Notes under the pieces: model-generated
Database searches by the model: none
Told to the model about the DNA's origin: nothing
The model's input: the letters and a program-made list of their open reading frames with translations, nothing else
Translations under genes and position numbers: made by a program
In this document: positions 3,693 to 15,410 of the stretch, piece after piece
Numbering within the stretch: position 1 is the stretch's first letter
Layout of the letters: the number at the start of each line of letters is the position of its first letter
From: a virus
Length of the DNA stretch: 17,604 nt
Virus genome (UHGV): UHGV-0097368
Strand: one strand, 5' to 3'

Positions 3693-3829
3693 ACGTCCTC
3701 CTTTTCCTGCGGTAGTGGTAACACCCCTGTTGGTGTTCTTTCACATCGGAGACACCATCGATTCCAGTAAGGTTGATTTGGTCGGAAGCGGTTATCTTCT
3801 TTGCATTCACCGCACCGATAACATCGCAT
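3659..3829 (-). CDS. ninD: NinD-position small Cys-rich protein (56 aa)
   Basis: Not in the ORF track (<60 aa). Hand translation: [59 protein letters not shown] overlaps the ninC stop (ATGA); size and position match lambda ninD. Confidence 0.7.
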
Positions 3830-4701
3830 CATGCAGCTTCCCTCCCGAAGTCGAAATCAAGCTGCCCTCCAAATATTTCGCATGACTCAGAACAAGAGCC
3901 GGTATCGAATCTTTTAGCTCGTACCATGTCCTGATACAGGGCTTGATAATCATTTTCTGAATACATTTTCGCGATACCGTCCAGCGACATTCTTCCTCGG
4001 TACATAATCTCCTTTGGCGTTTCCCGATGTCCGTCACGCACATGGGATCCCGTGATGACCTCATTAAAAACACGCTGCAATCCCTCCTCATCTTTGCAGG
4101 CAAGTCCGATTTTTTGCGTTGATTTTTTAATGCAGAATATGCAGTTACCGAGATGTTCCGGTATTTGCAAATCGAATGGTTGTTGCTTCCACCATGCGAG
4201 GATATCTTCCTTCTCAAAGTCTGACAGTTCAGCAAGATATCTGATTCCAGGCTTTGGCTTTAGCCGCTTCGGTTCATCAGCTCTGATGCCAATCCACGTG
4301 GTGTAATTCCCTCGCCCGAAATGGTCATCACAGTATTTGGTGAAGGGAACGAGTTTTAATCTGTCAGTGCAGAACGCGCCGCCGACGTATGGAGTGCCAT
4401 ATTTCTTTACCATATCGATAAATGGCTTCAGAACAGGCATTCGCGTCTGAATATCCTTTGGTTCCCATACCGTATAACCATTTGGCTGTCCAAGCTCCGG
4501 GTTGATATCAACCTGCAATACGGTGAGCGGTATATCCCAGAACTTCACAACTTCCCTGACAAACCGATATGTCATTGGATGTTCACAACCTGTATCCATG
4601 AAAACGTAATGCACGTCTTCACCTTCCCGTCGCTTTTGCTCCATTAGCCAGAGCAAATATGCTGACGTCCTGCCACCTGAGAAACTAACGACATTTATCA
4701 T
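3829..4701 (-). CDS. ninC: NinC (PAPS-reductase-like fold)
   Basis: 290 aa from [22 protein letters not shown]..., lambda NinC type; ATG at 4701 overlaps the stop of the upstream methyltransferase gene (ATGA). Confidence 0.9.
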
Positions 4702-5228
4702 GCAGCCCTCCTGACACCCTGCCCGATCGCCATCAATGCCGCTTTGGATACGGTAGTAAACATCCGTCGAGGACTGATGAATGGTCGCCAAATCAGCAGC
4801 ATGGAGCCTTTGCTGTTTCCCTTCTTCTCCAGCCCCGTCGATGGTTCGATAAAATTAATCCGTCCATCAGTGATAATGCGAACTTCGTCAACACTCTCCA
4901 GAGCCTTGCTGAACCATCCGACAGACATATCCTCTGGCACAAGCATCACTACCGGCTGTCGCTGTTGTATGCACTGCTCAGCGGCTTTTTCCACCCACGG
5001 CCTGATATTGCTGTACGGTGGGTTATTCCAGATTGCACCGTGGCTTATCCACTCAGAATTTAGCGCGTCGTCAGCCTCAGTTAGCCAGTGAGCGCACAGA
5101 GCATTTTTGTCGCTCGCTGCCGAATCCAGCCAGAATCCAAACTCAATATCCAGTGCATCAAAAAGCCAAAGCGGCGTTTGCCAGCAGTCTCTAACTTCTT
5201 TTGGTGTTTCTGATTTATGCTTAATCAT
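4698..5228 (-). CDS. Phage Dam-family DNA N6-adenine methyltransferase (orphan)
   Basis: 176 aa with CWQTP...FDALD...F.LD.AA and a NPPY catalytic motif typical of the phage N6-adenine MTase family; ATGA overlaps on both sides. Confidence 0.8.
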   Translation of the reverse strand: MIKHKSETPKEVRDCWQTPLWLFDALDIEFGFWLDSAASDKNALCAHWLTEADDALNSEWISHGAIWNNPPYSNIRPWVEKAAEQCIQQRQPVVMLVPEDMSVGWFSKALESVDEVRIITDGRINFIEPSTGLEKKGNSKGSMLLIWRPFISPRRMFTTVSKAALMAIGQGVRRAA

Positions 5229-5752
5229 TCAACCCTCGCATATTGTCCGTGATATTTGTTGATAGCCTCACTGGCAACCAAACCAGCAAGCTCAAGATCT
5301 TCATAGAACCCAAAATGCAACCGGCCAAAATCTGTGCGCACTTGAACGGCCCATTTATTTTTTTGCTTGTTCCATAAAACATTTTTTATTCCAGAACGGC
5401 TATTGCACTTAGTTTTCTGATTTCGGCTGTTTGCTATCCGGCTTGCCTCCCTAAGATTTTTTGGGGAATTGTCCAGCCTGTTTCCGTTAATATGGTCAAT
5501 ATTTTTCAATGGCATTCTTTTGTTGTGCAGCGCAAAAACAACTACGTGAACAAACATCTGAATGCCTGCAAAACACACCTGTCTATACCCAGATCCATTT
5601 ATCGATGTTTTAATTTCATCTCCGGCCCGGTGGCTGTGGTTGGGGTGTTTTAGCGAGTCCTTTTTGTACCTGACTGTATCTCCGTCTAAATACAGATAAT
5701 CCTCAATAAGCCGATACCTATCTGACGCTGGCGTATTTGATTTGATAGTCAT
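5225..5752 (-). CDS. HNH homing endonuclease with C-terminal AP2-like DNA-binding domain
   Basis: 175 aa from MTIKSNTPASDRY...; HNH_3-type motif HVVVFALHNKRMPLKNIDHINGNRLDNSPKNLREASRIANSRN; C-terminal WNKQKNKWAVQVRTDFGRLHFGFYEDLELAG is AP2-like. Visibly more AT-rich than the flanks. Confidence 0.8.
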   Translation of the reverse strand: MTIKSNTPASDRYRLIEDYLYLDGDTVRYKKDSLKHPNHSHRAGDEIKTSINGSGYRQVCFAGIQMFVHVVVFALHNKRMPLKNIDHINGNRLDNSPKNLREASRIANSRNQKTKCNSRSGIKNVLWNKQKNKWAVQVRTDFGRLHFGFYEDLELAGLVASEAINKYHGQYARVE

Positions 5753-6189
5753 GCAGCCCGATCTCCCCATCTCGCTTTCCACTCCAGAGCCAGTCTCGCT
5801 TCGTCTGACCACTTAACGCCACGCTCTGTACCGAATGCCTGTATAAGCTCTAATAGATCCGCAAATTCGCTTACACGCATCCTGCTGGTTGACTGGCCTA
5901 TTACCACAAAGCCATTCCCGGCAAGGTTAGGAACAACATCCTGCTGCTTTAATGCTGCGGTAAACACACACTTCCAGCTTTCTGCATCCAGCCAGCGACC
6001 ATGCCATTCAACCTGACGAGAGACGTCACCAAGGCAAGCCCAAAGCTTTCGATTCTGGTCTAAGCTGCGGTTGCGTTCCTGAATGGTTACTACGATTGGT
6101 TTGGTTGGGTCTGGAAGGATTTGCTGTACTGCGTGAATAGCGTTTTGCTGATGTGCTGGAGATCGAATTTCAAAGGTTAGTTTTTTCAT
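5749..6189 (-). CDS. ninB: NinB (Orf-family recombination mediator)
   Basis: 146 aa from MKKLTFEIRSPAHQQNAIHAVQQILPDPTKPIVVTIQERN..., lambda NinB type. Confidence 0.9.
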   Translation of the reverse strand: MKKLTFEIRSPAHQQNAIHAVQQILPDPTKPIVVTIQERNRSLDQNRKLWACLGDVSRQVEWHGRWLDAESWKCVFTAALKQQDVVPNLAGNGFVVIGQSTSRMRVSEFADLLELIQAFGTERGVKWSDEARLALEWKARWGDRAA

Positions 6190-6204
6190 GACTTCCCTCT
6201 CCCC

Positions 6205-6237
6205 CAAATAAAAAGGCCTGCGATTACCAGCAGGCCT
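6205..6237 (-). terminator. Intrinsic terminator between the helicase gene and ninB (tR2-like position)
   Basis: Minus-strand RNA AGGCCUGC-UGGUAAUC-GCAGGCCU (perfect 8-bp stem) followed by UUUUUAUUU. Confidence 0.7.
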
Positions 6238-6266
6238 GTTACAAGCTCAGTGATGTAGATGGTCAT

Positions 6267-8147
6267 TTAATACTCCGTCACGTTTTCCTGTCGCCACGCC
6301 TCGTCATATTCCGATTTCGGCATATTGGCGATGTAGCTATAAGGCGATCCTGATTCAAGTTGCAGGAACTGGTGCGATTGCTCGTCAAGGAACAACGGGA
6401 CACCACCTTCCCAACCTTCGCCGTTACGTTGTTTTTCAAGCATCAAAACAGATGCCGGAGATGCCAGTAGCTGTTCGTCCTTCTCTGACATCTTTTCACC
6501 ACTCTGAACTCTCTGTAACGCTCTCTCGCGAGCCTTGTTACGCCAGATGATAAAAAGGTTGTCTGTCAGGTCTGTTATCGCTCCAGAGCCTTTTACGTCC
6601 ATTTTCCCGGTTGGTTTTTCTTCGCTATCTCCTTTTCTGGAGTGAGTAACGAGAATGACGTGGGAGTTTGTTTTGTTTTTGAAGTCACAAATCGAGTCAA
6701 CAAATGCTTTCTGCCCGTTATAGTCATCGTCACCTATGCCGCATTTCATCAGGCTGTCGATGATGAATAACTGGATGCCGTATCGGCGGCGAGCGTAGTC
6801 GAATATTTCGATCAGCCTGTCGGCTTTCGCCGTTCCAGTCAGGCCAAACACCCAAAGTCTTTCGTCATAAAATTTAAATGCAGAGTCAATTTCCAGCACT
6901 GGCGGCATCTTGCAGCACGTCGCCTGACGGGTAAGGCGCTTAAGGAGAATACCAGGCTTCAGCTCAAGTGACGCGATGCACGTCTTCACACCCTGACGCA
7001 TTGCCTCAAGTGCCATATGCCCGACAACCTCCGTTTTTCCGTGACCGTTCACACCATTGACCAGCGTCAACTCGGCCTCACGAAACTGGAATTTATCTGC
7101 CAGAGATTCCCACGGTGGATTAAACAGATACTGCTGCTTGCCGTAGAAAGCGTTGATAGTGTCCTGGTAAAACTCTCGCGCGCTGTAGAGTTCTTCAGGA
7201 TCAAAGTAGGATGCCGTGCCGATGTACTGCCAGATTTCATCCTCGGTAACACCGTTCATCAGGCATTCGTTGATGTCTTTGTACGGCAGAGTAACAAGAC
7301 GGCAACGATGTTCACCGAGTCGGCTTGCGATTTCCCCTGCGGCTTCACGACCAACATCATCAACGTCCATCGAGATGAATATTTCCTCAAACCTGTCGAG
7401 GTTGTGATACTCAAACTCAATCCACTGTTGCTTAGCGCCTTTCCCGCCACCAAACGGCACGGATAACGCCGAGATGCCGTATTGCGCATAGCTCATACAA
7501 TCAATTTCGCCTTCGCAAAGTACAACCGCCCTCACGCCAGCGTCCAGAGCCTGCCATCCGAACAGACAAGGTTCGCAATCACCTTCTGCCATAATGACTT
7601 TCTTCCCGTCCGGGCGCTCAGTGCTGATTCGCTTGACCTGCAACAACTCACCATCGCGTTTGTACGGAAGCACCAGTGCATCAAGTTCTCGTTCTCCATT
7701 CCACACCTTGCCGCTGACAACCTCGTAGCGCTTTACGACTTCTGGCGATATGCCACGCGATTGCAGGTACTCAAGATGGGATTCTGTTCTGGTAACGTAG
7801 CGGGCGATTTTCTTGCGATCAGGTCTGGAGAATTTTTTCTCACGTTTGGCATCGAAATGGTGATCGTCATCCTTGATACCGAGAAATGCTTTCGCTTCCT
7901 GCATAGCCTGATGCAGGTTAATTCCACGACATGCCATCCACAAATCAAGCATGTCACCGCCGTCTCCCTCAGCGAAATCAGCCCATTTTTTCTTGCCGCT
8001 AAGGTTGACCTTAAGGCTGTTTCCCTTGTCACCATTGACGTTACCGGCAACCCACTCATGCCCCTCTTTCTTGCCGTTTGGCAACAGGTGCGGAGCCACC
8101 CTGTCAACCTGCGCCCAAAGCAGGTCGCTAAGTTCACTTGGCGTCAT
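6267..8147 (-). CDS. Bifunctional DNA primase-helicase (Toprim primase plus DnaB/gp4-like RecA-fold helicase)
   Basis: 626 aa; Toprim-like VVLCEGEIDCMSYAQYG; Walker A GVNGHGKTEVV and Walker B LFIIDSL; N-terminal zinc-ribbon-like segment without the usual cysteines. Confidence 0.85.
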   Translation of the reverse strand: MTPSELSDLLWAQVDRVAPHLLPNGKKEGHEWVAGNVNGDKGNSLKVNLSGKKKWADFAEGDGGDMLDLWMACRGINLHQAMQEAKAFLGIKDDDHHFDAKREKKFSRPDRKKIARYVTRTESHLEYLQSRGISPEVVKRYEVVSGKVWNGERELDALVLPYKRDGELLQVKRISTERPDGKKVIMAEGDCEPCLFGWQALDAGVRAVVLCEGEIDCMSYAQYGISALSVPFGGGKGAKQQWIEFEYHNLDRFEEIFISMDVDDVGREAAGEIASRLGEHRCRLVTLPYKDINECLMNGVTEDEIWQYIGTASYFDPEELYSAREFYQDTINAFYGKQQYLFNPPWESLADKFQFREAELTLVNGVNGHGKTEVVGHMALEAMRQGVKTCIASLELKPGILLKRLTRQATCCKMPPVLEIDSAFKFYDERLWVFGLTGTAKADRLIEIFDYARRRYGIQLFIIDSLMKCGIGDDDYNGQKAFVDSICDFKNKTNSHVILVTHSRKGDSEEKPTGKMDVKGSGAITDLTDNLFIIWRNKARERALQRVQSGEKMSEKDEQLLASPASVLMLEKQRNGEGWEGGVPLFLDEQSHQFLQLESGSPYSYIANMPKSEYDEAWRQENVTEY

Positions 8148-9983: not shown

Positions 9984-10700
<717 letters not shown>

Positions 10701-10812
10701 TCGGCAAGGTGTTCTGGTCGGCGCATAGCTGATAACAATTGAGCAAGAATCTTCATCGAATTAGGGGAATTTTCACTCCCCTCAGAACATAACATAGTAA
10801 ATGGATTGAATT

Positions 10813-11652
10813 ATGAAGAATGGTTTTTATGCGACTTACCGCAGCAAAAATAAAGGGAAAGATAAGCGCTCAATAAACCTGTCTGTTTTCCTTAATTCTC
10901 TGCTGGCTGATAATCATCACCTGCAGGTTGGCTCCAATTATTTGTATATTCATAAAATCGATGGAAAAACTTTTCTCTTTACCAAAACAAATGACAAGAG
11001 TCTGGTTCAGAAGATAAATCGCTCTAAAGCTTCAGTTGAAGATATTAAGAACAGCCTCGCAGATGACGAATCATTGGGATTCCCATCTTTTTTGTTTGTT
11101 GAAGGCGACACCATTGGTTTTGCCAGAACTGTTTTCGGGCCGACCACATCCGATCTGACAGATTTTTTAATCGGGAAAGGAATGTCATTAAGCAGTGGAG
11201 AGCGCGTTCAGATAGAGCCACTGATGAGGGGAACCACCAAAGACGATGTTATGCATATGCATTTCATCGGCCGAACAACGGTGAAGGTAGAAGCCAAGCT
11301 ACCTGTATTTGGCGATATATTAAAGGTCTTAGGGGCAACAGATATTGAAGGGGAGCTTTTTGACTCATTGGATATAGTCATTAAGCCAAAATTTAAAAGG
11401 GATATAAAAAAGGTTGCCAAGGATATTATTTTTAACCCGTCACCTCAATTTTCAGACATTAGCCTGCGGGCAAAAGATGAGGCCGGAGATATTTTAACAG
11501 AACATTATCTATCAGAAAAAGGCCATCTCTCAGCGCCTCTGAACAAGGTCACCAATGCTGAGATAGCTGAAGAGATGGCATATTGCTACGCAAGAATGAA
11601 AAGTGATATACTGGAATGTTTTAAAAGGCAGGTGGGCAAAGTTAAGGATTAA
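10813..11652 (+). CDS. rexA: RexA (Rex exclusion system sensor component)
   Basis: 279 aa MKNGFYATYRSKNKGKDKRSINLSVFLNSLLADNHHLQ..., lambda RexA. Confidence 0.95.
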   Translation: MKNGFYATYRSKNKGKDKRSINLSVFLNSLLADNHHLQVGSNYLYIHKIDGKTFLFTKTNDKSLVQKINRSKASVEDIKNSLADDESLGFPSFLFVEGDTIGFARTVFGPTTSDLTDFLIGKGMSLSSGERVQIEPLMRGTTKDDVMHMHFIGRTTVKVEAKLPVFGDILKVLGATDIEGELFDSLDIVIKPKFKRDIKKVAKDIIFNPSPQFSDISLRAKDEAGDILTEHYLSEKGHLSAPLNKVTNAEIAEEMAYCYARMKSDILECFKRQVGKVKD

Positions 11653-11667
11653 TTATCAGGAGTAATT

Positions 11668-12102
11668 ATGCGGAACAGAATCATGCCTGGTGTTTACATA
11701 GTAATAATTCCTTACGTTATCGTAAGCATTTGCTATCTCCTTTTCCGCCACTACATTCCTGGTGTTTCTTTTTCAGCTCATAGAGATGGTCTTGGGGCGA
11801 CATTGTCATCATATGCAGGAACCATGATTGCAATCCTGATTGCTGCCTTGACGTTTCTAATCGGAAGCAGAACGCGCCGACTGGCCAAGATTAGAGAGTA
11901 TGGGTATATGACATCGGTAGTTATTGTCTATGCCCTTAGTTTTGTTGAGCTTGGAGCTTTGTTTTTCTGCGGGTTATTGCTTCTTTCCAGCATAAGCGGC
12001 TACATGATACCCACTATCGCCATCGGCATTGCCTCTGCATCGTTCATTCATATATGCATCCTTGTTTTCCAACTATATAATTTGACCAGAGAACAAGAAT
12101 AA
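11668..12102 (+). CDS. rexB: RexB (Rex exclusion system membrane component)
   Basis: 144 aa hydrophobic MRNRIMPGVYIVIIPYVIVSICYLLFRHY..., lambda RexB. Confidence 0.95.
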   Translation: MRNRIMPGVYIVIIPYVIVSICYLLFRHYIPGVSFSAHRDGLGATLSSYAGTMIAILIAALTFLIGSRTRRLAKIREYGYMTSVVIVYALSFVELGALFFCGLLLLSSISGYMIPTIAIGIASASFIHICILVFQLYNLTREQE

Positions 12103-14015: not shown

Positions 14016-14104
14016 AGGTGTTCGCGTATTTTTAAATGCGGCAAAGACTGAAGTATTAAACCAGCGTTATTTCCTTGGGCCATGTCCATTCTGAGAACAA
14101 TCAT

Positions 14105-14710
14105 ATGAGCAAAGAATTTTACGCAAGACTGGCAGCTATTCAGGAGAATCTGAACGCGCCAAAGAATCAGTACAACTCATTCGGTAAATATAAATACAGA
14201 AGCTGCGAAGACATTCTTGAAGGCGTTAAGCCGTTACTGAATGGCCTGTTTTTATCAATCAGCGATGAAGTTGTGTTGATTGGTGATCGGTATTATGTGA
14301 AAGCCACGGCAACTATTACCGATGGCGAAAACAGTCATACGGCAACCGCTCTTGCACGAGAGGAAGAAAGCAAGAAAGGAATGGATTCTGCACAAGTTAC
14401 GGGAGCTACAAGCTCTTATGCACGCAAGTATTGCCTCAATGGTTTGTTCGGCATTGATGATGCGAAAGATGCAGATACCGACGAGCATAAACATCAGCAG
14501 AACGCAGCAGCAAAGCAGTCAAAACCATCACCTACACCTGAACAGGTTCTAAAAGCATTCACTGACGCAGCAATGCATAAAAACACCGTGGAAGAGCTTA
14601 AACAGGCTTTCGCCAAAGCGTGGAAGATGCTCGAAGGAACACCGGAGCAGCACAAAGCGCAGGACGTTTACAACATCAGACGAGACGAATTAGAAGGAGC
14701 GGCTGCTTAA
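14105..14710 (+). CDS. erf: Erf-family single-strand annealing recombinase (P22 Erf-like)
   Basis: MSKEFYARLAAIQENLNAPKNQYNSFGKYKYRSCEDILEGVKPLLNGLFLSISDEVVLIGDRYYVKATATITDGENSHTA is characteristic of the Erf family; the upstream TTG-initiated extension in the ORF track is unlikely to be used. Confidence 0.85.
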   Translation: MSKEFYARLAAIQENLNAPKNQYNSFGKYKYRSCEDILEGVKPLLNGLFLSISDEVVLIGDRYYVKATATITDGENSHTATALAREEESKKGMDSAQVTGATSSYARKYCLNGLFGIDDAKDADTDEHKHQQNAAAKQSKPSPTPEQVLKAFTDAAMHKNTVEELKQAFAKAWKMLEGTPEQHKAQDVYNIRRDELEGAAA

Positions 14711-15093
14711 TGGCACATTCGATTACTGTAAGACTAAACAAGCCCGCAAGAGAGTTTCAGGCCGGGGAAAATATCGGATTCAACATCCGTGCTGGCGTTC
14801 AGTATTACGATCGCCAGACAAAAAAGAAAGAATGGACAAACTACAGCGCCGTTGTATTTGCCAAGCCGGGAGCGCAAGCGGATTACTACCGTAGTGTTCT
14901 TGTTGAAGGTGGCATTGTGGAAATTACCGGAGAAAACATCAGGGTTGATGTTTATCAGGGGCAAAATGGTCAATCAATCACTCTTGAATTACTGAATGCA
15001 AAGATTGGATTTGCAACTTCAGGAAACAGCCAACAGCAGCAAAGTAGCAATCATCAAAATCATCCTGAATACGACGATTCAATTCCCTTCTAG
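14710..15093 (+). CDS. Phage single-stranded DNA-binding protein (OB fold, acidic C-terminal tail)
   Basis: 127 aa from MAHSITVRLNK...; Gln-rich linker and C-terminal EYDDSIPF tail like the SSB DDDIPF tip; ATG overlaps the erf stop (TAATG). Confidence 0.75.
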   Translation: MAHSITVRLNKPAREFQAGENIGFNIRAGVQYYDRQTKKKEWTNYSAVVFAKPGAQADYYRSVLVEGGIVEITGENIRVDVYQGQNGQSITLELLNAKIGFATSGNSQQQQSSNHQNHPEYDDSIPF

Positions 15094-15116
15094 ATTAGCA
15101 AAATAAGGATTCCATT

Positions 15117-15410
15117 ATGCCAGCGCCTCTGTATGGTGCGGATGACCCGCGCCGCTGTTCCGGCAATTCCGTATCGGAGGTGCTGGATAAATTCAGAAAA
15201 AACTACGATCGGATAATGTCGCTACCGCAGGAAACGAAAGAGGAAAAGGAATTTCGCCATTGTATATGGCTTGCAGAGAAAGAAGAACGCGAGCGAATTT
15301 ACCAGACATCAATCCGACCATTCCGCAAAGCCACATATACCCACTTCCCTGAAATTGACCCGCGCCTGCGTAATTACCGCTCACGCTATGGCGCTATCAG
15401 TAATGACTGA
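15117..15410 (+). CDS. Hypothetical protein (97 aa)
   Basis: ATG with AAGGA 7 nt upstream; MPAPLYGADDPRRCSGNSVSEVLDKFRKNYDRIMSLPQETKEEKEF...; no family recognised. Confidence 0.6.
   Translation: MPAPLYGADDPRRCSGNSVSEVLDKFRKNYDRIMSLPQETKEEKEFRHCIWLAEKEERERIYQTSIRPFRKATYTHFPEIDPRLRNYRSRYGAISND

Follow-up and report, generated by a model that had tools for sequence, protein, structure and literature searches.

The 17,604-nt virus genome UHGV-0097368, referred to here over its full length as the window, carries on its minus strand four adjoining nin-region genes in the order ninB, a gene for an HNH endonuclease, dam, and ninC (Table 1), and Pfam and PHROGs agree on these assignments. The genes are chained by three ATGA stop/start overlaps, at 5749-5752 (ninB/HNH), 5225-5228 (HNH/dam), and 4698-4701 (dam/ninC), as the original prediction made from this DNA had described. 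Such chaining is the norm throughout lambdoid nin regions (PMC8022706), so it has no special meaning at this locus. Taking the ninB-ninC order of phage lambda as its reference, the prediction had regarded both middle genes as additions and had pictured a homing endonuclease beside an orphan adenine methyltransferase. Both genes do lie between ninB and ninC, but lambda proved to be the wrong reference, as a ninB-dam module is found in phages 434, mEp043, HK140, and SfI and in the Shiga toxin (Stx) phages. Only an HNH cassette is a true insert, and it lies inside dam rather than beside it. The candidate homing site is therefore the junction of ninB with a dam bearing its native start (type-1), not the ninB-ninC junction. 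Hereafter, type-2 denotes the replacement dam start that accompanies the HNH gene.

Table 1. Features of the ninB-ninC locus and its upstream neighbours in the window
Feature	Position	Strand	Basis
Captured dam 5' end ATGACTATCAAATCAAATACGCCAGC: start codon plus codons 1-9 (MTIKSNTPA) of type-1 dam	5727-5752	minus	empty-allele alignment
Inserted cassette, 537 nt, in place of 10 nt ACACGACAAG	5190-5726	minus	empty-allele alignment
Type-2 dam 5' end, 13 codons, ATGATTAAGCATAAATCAGAAACACCAAAAGAAGTTAGA (MIKHKSETPKEVR), 28% GC	5190-5228	minus	last 39 nt of insert
GAGGG Shine-Dalgarno-like motif in HNH 3' end, 4 nt upstream of rebuilt dam ATG	5233-5237	minus	sequence reading
HNH endonuclease open reading frame, 175 aa	5225-5752	minus	Pfam HNH_3; PHROG 99 'HNH endonuclease'
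HNH_3 catalytic core, residues 67-110	5423-5554	minus	Pfam; D86-H87, N99, N108 invariant
Putative AP2-like DNA-binding domain, residues ~121-170	5243-5392	minus	model secondary structure
dam, 176 aa, phage N6-adenine methyltransferase family	4698-5228	minus	Pfam Dam PF05869 E=2e-65
ninC (PAPS-reductase-like), downstream of dam	3829-4701	minus	Pfam PAPS_reduct
ninB (Orf-family recombination mediator, allele 'ninB1')	5749-6189	minus	Pfam NinB E=8e-55
Terminator-like hairpin upstream of ninB, start of nin operon segment	6214-6237	minus	pattern scan
Primase-helicase, first gene in transcription order before the ninB segment	8147 to 6267	minus	

Anatomy of the insertion in two lineages

When the window is aligned with phages 434 and mEp043, which have empty alleles, the HNH gene falls within the dam reading frame and not between genes; the coordinates were rechecked. 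In the empty allele, dam starts at an ATGA that overlaps the ninB stop codon and reads ATGACTATCAAATCAAATACGCCAGC-ACACGACAAG-GACTGCTGG, encoding MTIKSNTPAHDK and then DCW. Both phages read ...GCCAGC-ACACGACAAG-GACTGCTGG at this point, and the window differs only by the 537-nt insert. The 26 nt captured on its upstream side are identical at 26/26 positions to the dam start of the two HNH-free phages and form the N terminus of the HNH open reading frame (ORF), which opens MTIKSNTPA and continues SDRYRL..., while identity with the empty alleles resumes at GACTGCTGG (5181-5189), the stretch that encodes the DCW motif. MT[IL]KSNTP is the native N terminus of this Dam clade and is not conserved among HNH homologues. 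The first 10 residues of the HNH protein also fall outside its conserved core, consistent with a dam origin of the HNH N terminus. Fused in frame to the dam ATG, the HNH ORF would thereby be coupled in translation to ninB, as dam is in the empty allele, and be expressed from the early rightward transcript.

The cassette itself comprises the body of the HNH gene, a GAGG ribosome site, and a recoded dam start of 13 codons that takes the place of what lies after dam codon 9 and ahead of the conserved DCWQTP-coding motif. The dam gene of the window is chimeric, with a type-2 5' end joined to a body of the Escherichia coli clade from the DCW motif on. The GAGGG motif would serve as the translation signal for this rebuilt dam, and GCGAGGG is kept in the diverged cassette of the second lineage described below (L037).

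That lineage provides an empty/occupied pair (L037 against L073 and L075) independent of the one formed by the window with 434 and mEp043. It is represented by L037 and L038, metagenomic or Sequence Read Archive contigs in which a DUF1367 gene stands upstream instead of ninB and does not overlap the HNH gene. The empty alleles L073 and L075, whose site after DUF1367 reads ATGACCGACAAATCAAATACC...AGATGGCGC, run ...TTCTGAGGTTACG-ATGACCGACAAATCAAATACCCCGCCAGAAGACAAAGACAGATGGCGCACC and encode a dam beginning MTDKSNTPPEDKDRW. The occupied allele runs ...TTCTGAGGTTACG-ATGACCGACAAATC/TGAACAAAAG...HNH...GCGAGGGAAGC-ATGATTAAACATAAATCACAAACCCCAATAGAATCACGCGATTGC/TGGCGCACC, where slashes mark the joints; in L037, ATGACCGACAAATC is followed by HNH, the type-2 5' end, and then TGGCGC. 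Here too, the HNH ORF opens at the dam ATG and first codons (MTDKS), and it is the type-2 segment that gives dam its new start. Over DUF1367, the HNH gene, and the type-2 segment, L037 and L038 share at least 99% identity; this falls to about 55% in the dam body, and the two become similar again at the dam stop. The dam body of L037 is 91-94% identical to the Atlantibacter clade, which includes L073 and L075, and that of L038 is 80% identical to the type-1 dam P0086. The cassette is joined to three different dam bodies, always at the conserved D-x-W-x-T-P coding motif. Between the window and L037, the type-2 segments are identical at 30/39 nt, the same divergence as that of the HNH genes, which fits long co-inheritance of the two. 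In the phage and E. coli collections, L038-type DNA found a match for its DUF1367 gene only.

The replacement dam start and the HNH protein

The Dam protein of the window matches PF05869 with 219.8 bits against a cut-off of 28.1 (residues 5-170), and the NPPY motif named in the original prediction lies at residues 69-72 (5013-5024). In its full-length match and its NPPY, it resembles the other phage Dams of this family (VT-2, HP1, T1, and the nin-region dam of 434 and the Stx phages), and it shares the position after ninB with the dam of 434 and the Stx phages, from which it differs in that its first 13 residues are replaced. The body is ~96-98% identical to other copies of the same dam and shows few differences from 434 and mEp043. 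The Pfam Dam model matches type-1 and type-2 proteins alike from profile position 1, and so both N termini are genuine Dam N termini. The Dams of VT-2 and HP1 are listed as characterised relatives (PMC7556043), and by analogy with these two we assume that the phage Dam is specific for GATC.

The type-2 start was traced in a word-indexed protein search in which 240 Dam clusters from a 5.8-billion-protein collection were listed. Proteins of the E. coli-type clade and its relatives in Pectobacterium, Edwardsiella, Serratia, and other genera start MT[IL]KSNTPxxDK, those of a clade from Atlantibacter, Salmonella, Enterobacter, and Klebsiella start MTDKSNTPxExK, and further clusters start M[ST]D[YF]GGSxTP. 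The start MIKHKS(E/Q)TP was present in only two of the 240 listed clusters, P0063 (the window type) and P0076, and both are HNH-linked; the P0076 dam directly follows a 171-aa HNH orthologue. A third dam with this start, reached via the HNH orthologue P0003 (78% identical), also directly follows an HNH gene. A scan of IMG/VR, confined to exact pattern matches, returned 23 stretches with the type-2 start: 15 with an E. coli-type HNH gene, 4 with a second-lineage HNH gene, and 4 with deletion scars. Among E. coli genomes, the start was found in 42, with the HNH gene in 34 and scars in the other 8. On the strength of these sequence associations, the replacement dam start appears to belong to the HNH element.

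The HNH_3-type motif of the original prediction is readily recovered by Pfam (PF13392; 42.6 bits against a cut-off of 24.8, E=4.6e-11, residues 67-110) and is accompanied by a PHROG 99 match at E=6e-43; the NCBI Prokaryotic Genome Annotation Pipeline (PGAP) already names the window-type ORF 'HNH endonuclease'. Residues H69, D86, H87, N95, N99, N108, and N111 are invariant in an alignment of 30 homologues, and the catalytic residues were confirmed in the window protein. The D-H...N...N spacing (H87/N99/N108 here) appears to be the same as in I-HmuI. An AlphaFold2 model of the protein (predicted local distance difference test [pLDDT] 89, predicted template modelling score [pTM] 0.78) has as its best match in the PDB I-HmuI itself (1u3e; Foldseek probability 0.99, E=4e-3, 20% identity, global TM-score 0.38). 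A direct sequence search of the PDB with the HNH protein was uninformative, with a single chance match at E=0.94.

The AP2-like DNA-binding domain that had been proposed for the C terminus is harder to establish. Neither the whole protein nor its C-terminal 61 aa matched PF00847 (AP2) at E<=10. The domain is, however, precomputed in 12/62 HNH homologues, and the modelled C terminus consists of strands 125-128, 133-140, and 143-150 followed by a helix at 153-167, an arrangement that Foldseek matched to plant AP2 domains (WRINKLED1, TEM1; 7wq5, 7et5) with probability 0.97-1.0, a root-mean-square deviation of 1.6-3.2 Å, and weak E values of 0.1-0.6. Homologues and predicted fold together point indirectly to an AP2-like domain. 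HNH-AP2 is a recognised architecture of homing endonucleases (Magnani et al. 2004, as cited in PMC10448857).

Between the two lineages, the HNH genes differ at 25% of nucleotides, with 0.152 nonsynonymous (dN) and 1.54 synonymous (dS) substitutions per site and a dN/dS of 0.098, and as judged from these codon substitutions, purifying selection maintains HNH as a protein. Distant relatives adjoin thioredoxin, tail, or lysis genes in unrelated phage contexts, as expected where each family member has its own target. A scan of genome contigs with the HNH protein returned only one distant relative, on a 1.3-kb contig. Assignment to the terminase-associated HNH proteins of the HK97 gp74 type was rejected, as the gene stands in the nin region, away from the terminase, and belongs to the HNH_3-AP2 family.

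Occurrence, decay, and surroundings of the cassette

A search of 50,697 phage records with positions 4400-6300 matched 457 records, none of which covers the HNH segment; the 40 matching records that were listed all match in two pieces, ninB and dam, with nothing between. The phages with such an HNH-free ninB-dam arrangement include 434, mEp043, HK140, Sf101, SfI, and the Stx phages, and ninE usually comes next. No phage record was more than 60% identical to the HNH protein by tblastn. Among 5426 E. coli genomes (complete RefSeq genomes, with clonal redundancy), 34 carry the HNH gene, at 43 places, and in every place inspected it lies directly upstream of a phage dam. The HNH-free type-1 ninB-dam junction, counted at >=80% coverage of a 104-nt probe, is present in at least 1021 genomes of the set. 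By these counts, ninB-dam is a standard lambdoid module and HNH a rare addition to it. At least 1021 genomes and hundreds of phage records have a dam without HNH, so dam is an independent orphan methylase, as had been proposed in preference to half of a restriction-modification system. The HNH gene was also correctly described as AT-rich, with a GC content of 0.419 against 0.497 for ninB and 0.505 for dam. It is neither universal (34/5426 genomes) nor matched in composition to its surroundings (GC 0.41-0.42 in both lineages against ~0.50-0.51 in the flanks), and the mobility of the gene that the original prediction had proposed is in keeping with both observations.

A block of 567 nt (the cassette together with the 26 captured nt and another 4 nt) was compared between the window and seven IMG/VR prophage loci: its copies are 99.1-100% identical, whereas the dam bodies that adjoin them are 96.3-97.7% identical. 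The genes upstream of the block range from 97-99% identical to unalignable, ninB1 and its counterpart ninB2 sharing 43% amino acid identity; the ninB of the window is 98-99% identical to that of mEp043 and 434. No HNH-specific co-conversion polymorphisms in the dam body were obvious in a four-sequence alignment, in which no dedicated search for them was made.

Among the 34 HNH-positive E. coli genomes, nine hold two HNH copies. In NZ_CP182387.1, these are located in distinct prophages at ~1.529 Mb (L043) and ~3.514 Mb (L044), which have different flanks and share a common block of 2664 nt, 99.7% identical, made up of HNH612, a hypothetical gene, ninB, HNH528, and dam. This block is compatible with exchange between co-resident prophages and is no proof of homing. 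As proof of intracellular homing, two-copy genomes are ambiguous, because the two prophages have this longer block in common. Variation at the junction was also observed: in the IMG/VR loci L021 and L022, near 3001, the HNH gene starts with GTG (VTIKSNT...) after a different upstream gene, and three E. coli matches (H52, H62, and H70) end one base before the start codon, with the upstream gene annotated 'hypothetical' or 'NinB/YbcN family'.

Several copies of the HNH gene have decayed, through a nonsense mutation (L020), a frameshift (L023), a 5' truncation (L024), a double frameshift (L045), or truncation by IS100 (L007). Alleles with a type-2 dam and no HNH gene fall into four classes that resemble deletions at short repeats (microhomology). 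The class A scar involves a GAGGG repeat and leaves the last TTGA of HNH (L005, L047-L049, and L053), class B an ATGA repeat (L006 and L060), and class C a CTATCAA repeat, leaving a 14-codon start-to-end fusion, MTINKYHGQYVRVE (L008 and L046); in class D, the last 23 nt of the HNH gene are kept (L004, L058, and L071). Gain, decay, and loss together form the pattern expected of a homing endonuclease gene. The alternative that an HNH-free type-2 dam after ninB2 is ancestral was rejected, as three of the four classes keep nucleotides of the HNH 3' end and the fourth is explained by an ATGA-to-ATGA deletion. The converse proposal, that HNH is ancestral and the type-1 start MTIKSNTPAHDK a scar of its deletion, was likewise rejected, as MT[ILD]KSNTP is native in several Dam clades from many genera and the Pfam Dam model fits both starts from its first position. 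One scar-allele prophage carries a HigA/RelE-type toxin-antitoxin pair just after ninE, on the opposite strand (L004:2260-2843).

The minus-strand order of transcription in the window is primase-helicase, hairpin, ninB, HNH, dam, ninC, ninD, ninE, ninF, and ninG. The counterpart of the hairpin carries a terminator annotation in phage 434, and a pattern scan of 4500-6400 returned no promoter-like sites; lacking one of its own, the HNH gene is probably expressed from the early rightward transcript. The remainder of the window is a lambdoid early region with lambda-type cI, rexA, rexB, and N, cII, an O-like replication gene, Q, and a holin gene, and the recombination genes it encodes are erf, abc2, ninB, and ninG. 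At 9987-12102 and 14075-15410 on the plus strand, lambda-type immunity (cI with an S24 peptidase domain, rexA, rexB, and N) is combined with P22-type erf and abc2; a Toprim-DnaB-like primase-helicase stands where lambda has P. In the window, dam is followed by ninC, and in most relatives by ninE; similarity to the dam-ninE phages stops at 4698, exactly the dam stop codon, forming a sharp mosaic joint on the ATGA overlap, and the dam-ninC order is also present in L005 and L023. Six GATC sites lie in 4600-6300. The GATC at 5760-5763, in the 3' end of ninB1, is 8-11 nt upstream of the shared ATG and is not present in the ninB2 context.

Further endonuclease and methylase genes accompany the nin region in related prophages. 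A second HNH_3-type gene, encoding 203 aa with an AP2-like tail and 33% identical to the window HNH, lies between the primase/helicase gene and the ninB terminator hairpin (L003:10014-10625, minus strand; L043:2116-2727), a place that the window fills with an uninterrupted 77-nt spacer (6190-6266). A third annotated HNH gene, of 567 nt, is found between ninF and ninG in a prophage of E. coli Br_190_kylling (L044:1602-2168). The presence of up to three endonuclease genes in one nin region suggests that the region is a hotspot for them. In Enterobacter phage vB_Ecl_MII_001, an unrelated HNH gene of 194 aa begins 8 nt after the DUF1367 stop (L041:2458-3042), in the slot of the L037-type cassette, and dam does not follow there. 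A C5-cytosine methyltransferase gene (PF00145) lies between ninE and ninF in L037 (3447-4553) and L075 (2730-3782), giving the second-lineage nin region two orphan methylase genes, and several Dam clusters are annotated as fused to PF00145.

A homing reading and its alternatives

We consider it likely that positions 5190-5726 hold a homing-endonuclease cassette that entered a lambdoid dam within its 5' end and brought a replacement dam start with it. The gene would be expressed during lytic growth, probably from the N-antiterminated early rightward transcript, and its product, probably an I-HmuI-like His-Asn-Asn nuclease, would nick or cut the type-1 dam 5' end of an HNH-free lambdoid genome in the same cell, between dam codon 5 and the DCW motif. 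Phage or host recombination would then repair the break from the occupied allele and copy the cassette into the empty site, with ninB and the 26 captured nt as the left homology arm and the dam body from DCW on as the right. Restart at GAGG, together with the ATGA overlap and the 13 recoded codons, would restore the dam reading frame, and the rebuilt Dam would be expected to stay active. Immunity of the occupied allele and the scars is presumed to follow from the splitting of the site and from the recoding of its right half, in which AT-rich synonyms and homologous residues are used. From one dam clade to another, jumps would proceed through joints in ~10-26 nt of identity and would be rare; joints of this length fit the observed junctions and imply infrequent events. 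It is possible, although we would put it at somewhat below even chances, that the cassette is a natural 'insert-and-rescue' homing element, in which the recoded start both restores the methylase and destroys the recognition site, so that occupied alleles and scars would be immune.

Several points weigh against the homing reading. Cutting by the HNH protein and the type-1 dam 5' end as its target are what we infer from sequence comparison, the evidence for the AP2-like domain is indirect, and the activity of the rebuilt Dam is predicted. General recombination in a mosaic region could spread a linked block with no endonuclease involved, and transfer between dam clades needs joints in only ~10-26 nt of homology. 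The exclusive association of the type-2 start with HNH is drawn from a word-indexed protein search and an exact-pattern DNA scan, both of which are limited, and clonal sampling inflates the E. coli counts, many of the carriers being poultry isolates.

In the strongest competing explanation, HNH and the type-2 start are a passive module shuffled by general or phage recombination and the endonuclease is inactive or domesticated, for example as an AP2-type regulator. The nin region is extremely mosaic with junctions at gene boundaries, Erf, Abc2, NinB, and NinG are encoded in the window, and simple recombination explains the 2.66-kb block shared at 99.7% by two prophages of one strain equally well. 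We nevertheless regard this explanation as unlikely. The aligned homologues agree in every catalytic residue, dN/dS is 0.098 at a dS of ~1.5, the cassette is more conserved than the dam body (99.1-100% against 96.3-97.7%) and abuts unalignable upstream DNA, identical precise junctions recur in three dam clades, and repeated decay and loss fit a selfish element better than a useful regulator. Cutting could also serve competition, with HNH attacking the dam region of co-infecting or co-resident lambdoid phages, the outcome being marker exclusion together with favoured inheritance of the nin genes on either side, and cassette copying a by-product. I-HmuI-type enzymes, as Goodrich-Blair and Shub are said to have found in 1996, favour the flanking markers of their own phage, and such a preference would suit this use, as would the presence of up to three HNH genes per nin region in related prophages. 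Nucleases also mark the boundaries of exchanged blocks in phages (PMC10448857). Such a weapon is compatible with homing and inseparable from it by sequence data alone, but occupation of only ~2% of sites and frequent loss argue against a strong benefit, and as the main role of the gene we find it improbable.

The adjacency and translational coupling of a nuclease and an N6-adenine methylase, with HNH directly upstream of dam in every place inspected, invite the view that the two form a restriction-modification or addiction pair in which Dam methylation blocks the HNH nuclease. We rejected this reading, which we hold to be highly improbable, as dam is overwhelmingly found without the HNH gene: at least 1021 E. 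coli genomes and hundreds of phages have it by itself at this locus. Fusion of HNH to the first codons of dam in two lineages is moreover a signature of insertion and not of operon design, HNH relatives adjoin unrelated genes, and HNH_3-AP2 proteins are treated as a family of homing endonucleases (PMC10448857, citing Magnani 2004). E. coli hosts already methylate GATC, and a methylation-blocked enzyme would presumably be without targets in a Dam-positive host. Still less probable, to the point of being barely credible, is a self-splicing cassette, that is, a group I/II intron or an intein whose removal regenerates dam. I-HmuI, the closest solved structure, is intron-encoded, and in principle the frame would be preserved if 5727 were joined to 5190. 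Against this, no Rfam intron or other structured-RNA family was matched in 4500-6300 at E<=1, and Pfam shows HNH_3 only in the HNH ORF, with no Hint domain. The ORF has its own stop codon and therefore cannot be an intein, and as the cassette brings its own Shine-Dalgarno motif, ATG, and homologous N terminus, splicing is unnecessary.

Each part of the arrangement is known by itself: a PF05869 Dam gene often follows ninB, and homing endonucleases of the HNH-AP2 kind have been described. With the free-standing enzymes of the latter kind in phages and cyanobacteria (Magnani et al. 2004; 'IPA-HNH' genes of vibriophage ICP1, as presented in PMC10448857), the window protein shares an N-terminal HNH_3 His-Me finger and a putative AP2-like C terminus, as well as being encoded by a small (~170 aa), sporadic, AT-rich stand-alone phage ORF. 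It differs in that its gene is not intergenic but has been joined in frame to the opening codons of its target, for which it also supplies a replacement 5' end. I-HmuI, encoded in the DNA-polymerase intron of phage SPO1, is a nicking endonuclease and the best structural match of the model, but it binds DNA through NUMOD-type and helix-turn-helix modules, not AP2.

Closer parallels are found among endonuclease genes that interrupt coding sequences. The gene mobE splits nrdA of Aeromonas phage Aeh1 (Friedrich et al. 2007, as cited in PMC10448857) and, as in the window, a free-standing endonuclease gene lies inside a coding gene with no intron or intein and host function is preserved. As described there, however, nrdA survives as two polypeptides that reassemble, whereas dam loses only 9 codons, replaced by a recoded copy borne on the element. 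In Allomyces macrogynus atp6, Ophiostoma rps3, and Phlebia atp6/cox2, endonuclease insertions carry a substitute gene end (as outlined in PMC4019555). These mitochondrial insertions likewise combine an in-frame endonuclease ORF with a homologous terminal segment of foreign origin, which takes the place of the resident segment, but they affect the 3' (C-terminal) end and encode GIY-YIG or LAGLIDADG enzymes, whereas the cassette of the window concerns the 5' end of a phage gene, takes the start codon, and encodes an HNH enzyme. The cassette is also comparable to hidden HNH insertions of the ShiLan type, known from DNA methylase genes of actinophages (PMC11855218), which are actively spreading HNH elements inside a phage methyltransferase gene with no recognisable intron or intein. 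They are internal, out of frame, and read through as an extra methylase loop, whereas the HNH of the window is in frame with its own stop and the methylase restarts. A limited literature search found no description of a phage element that takes the start codon of its target and supplies a recoded replacement 5' end.

The findings also have implications beyond this locus. They correct the tempting misreading of an HNH gene next to a methylase gene as a restriction-modification pair. The practical gain is modest and consists of a candidate for a site-specific HNH-AP2 nuclease whose target can be inferred. If insert-and-rescue is true, a small, programmable-looking nuclease of this kind would have the 30-40 bp dam 5' end as its defined target. 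With two natural empty/occupied pairs and decay intermediates at hand, the homing cycle is testable in the lambda genetic system, and the nin region as a hotspot for endonuclease genes bears on the origin of mosaic boundaries. Homing endonuclease genes usually spare the host gene by intergenic position, by an intron or intein, or by gene splitting, and the dam cassette would represent a fourth solution in phage, in-frame insertion at the 5' end with the start taken over and a recoded replacement start supplied. Should the insert-and-rescue reading hold, the logic of engineered home-and-rescue gene drives would have evolved in temperate phages and remained stable in at least three dam clades.

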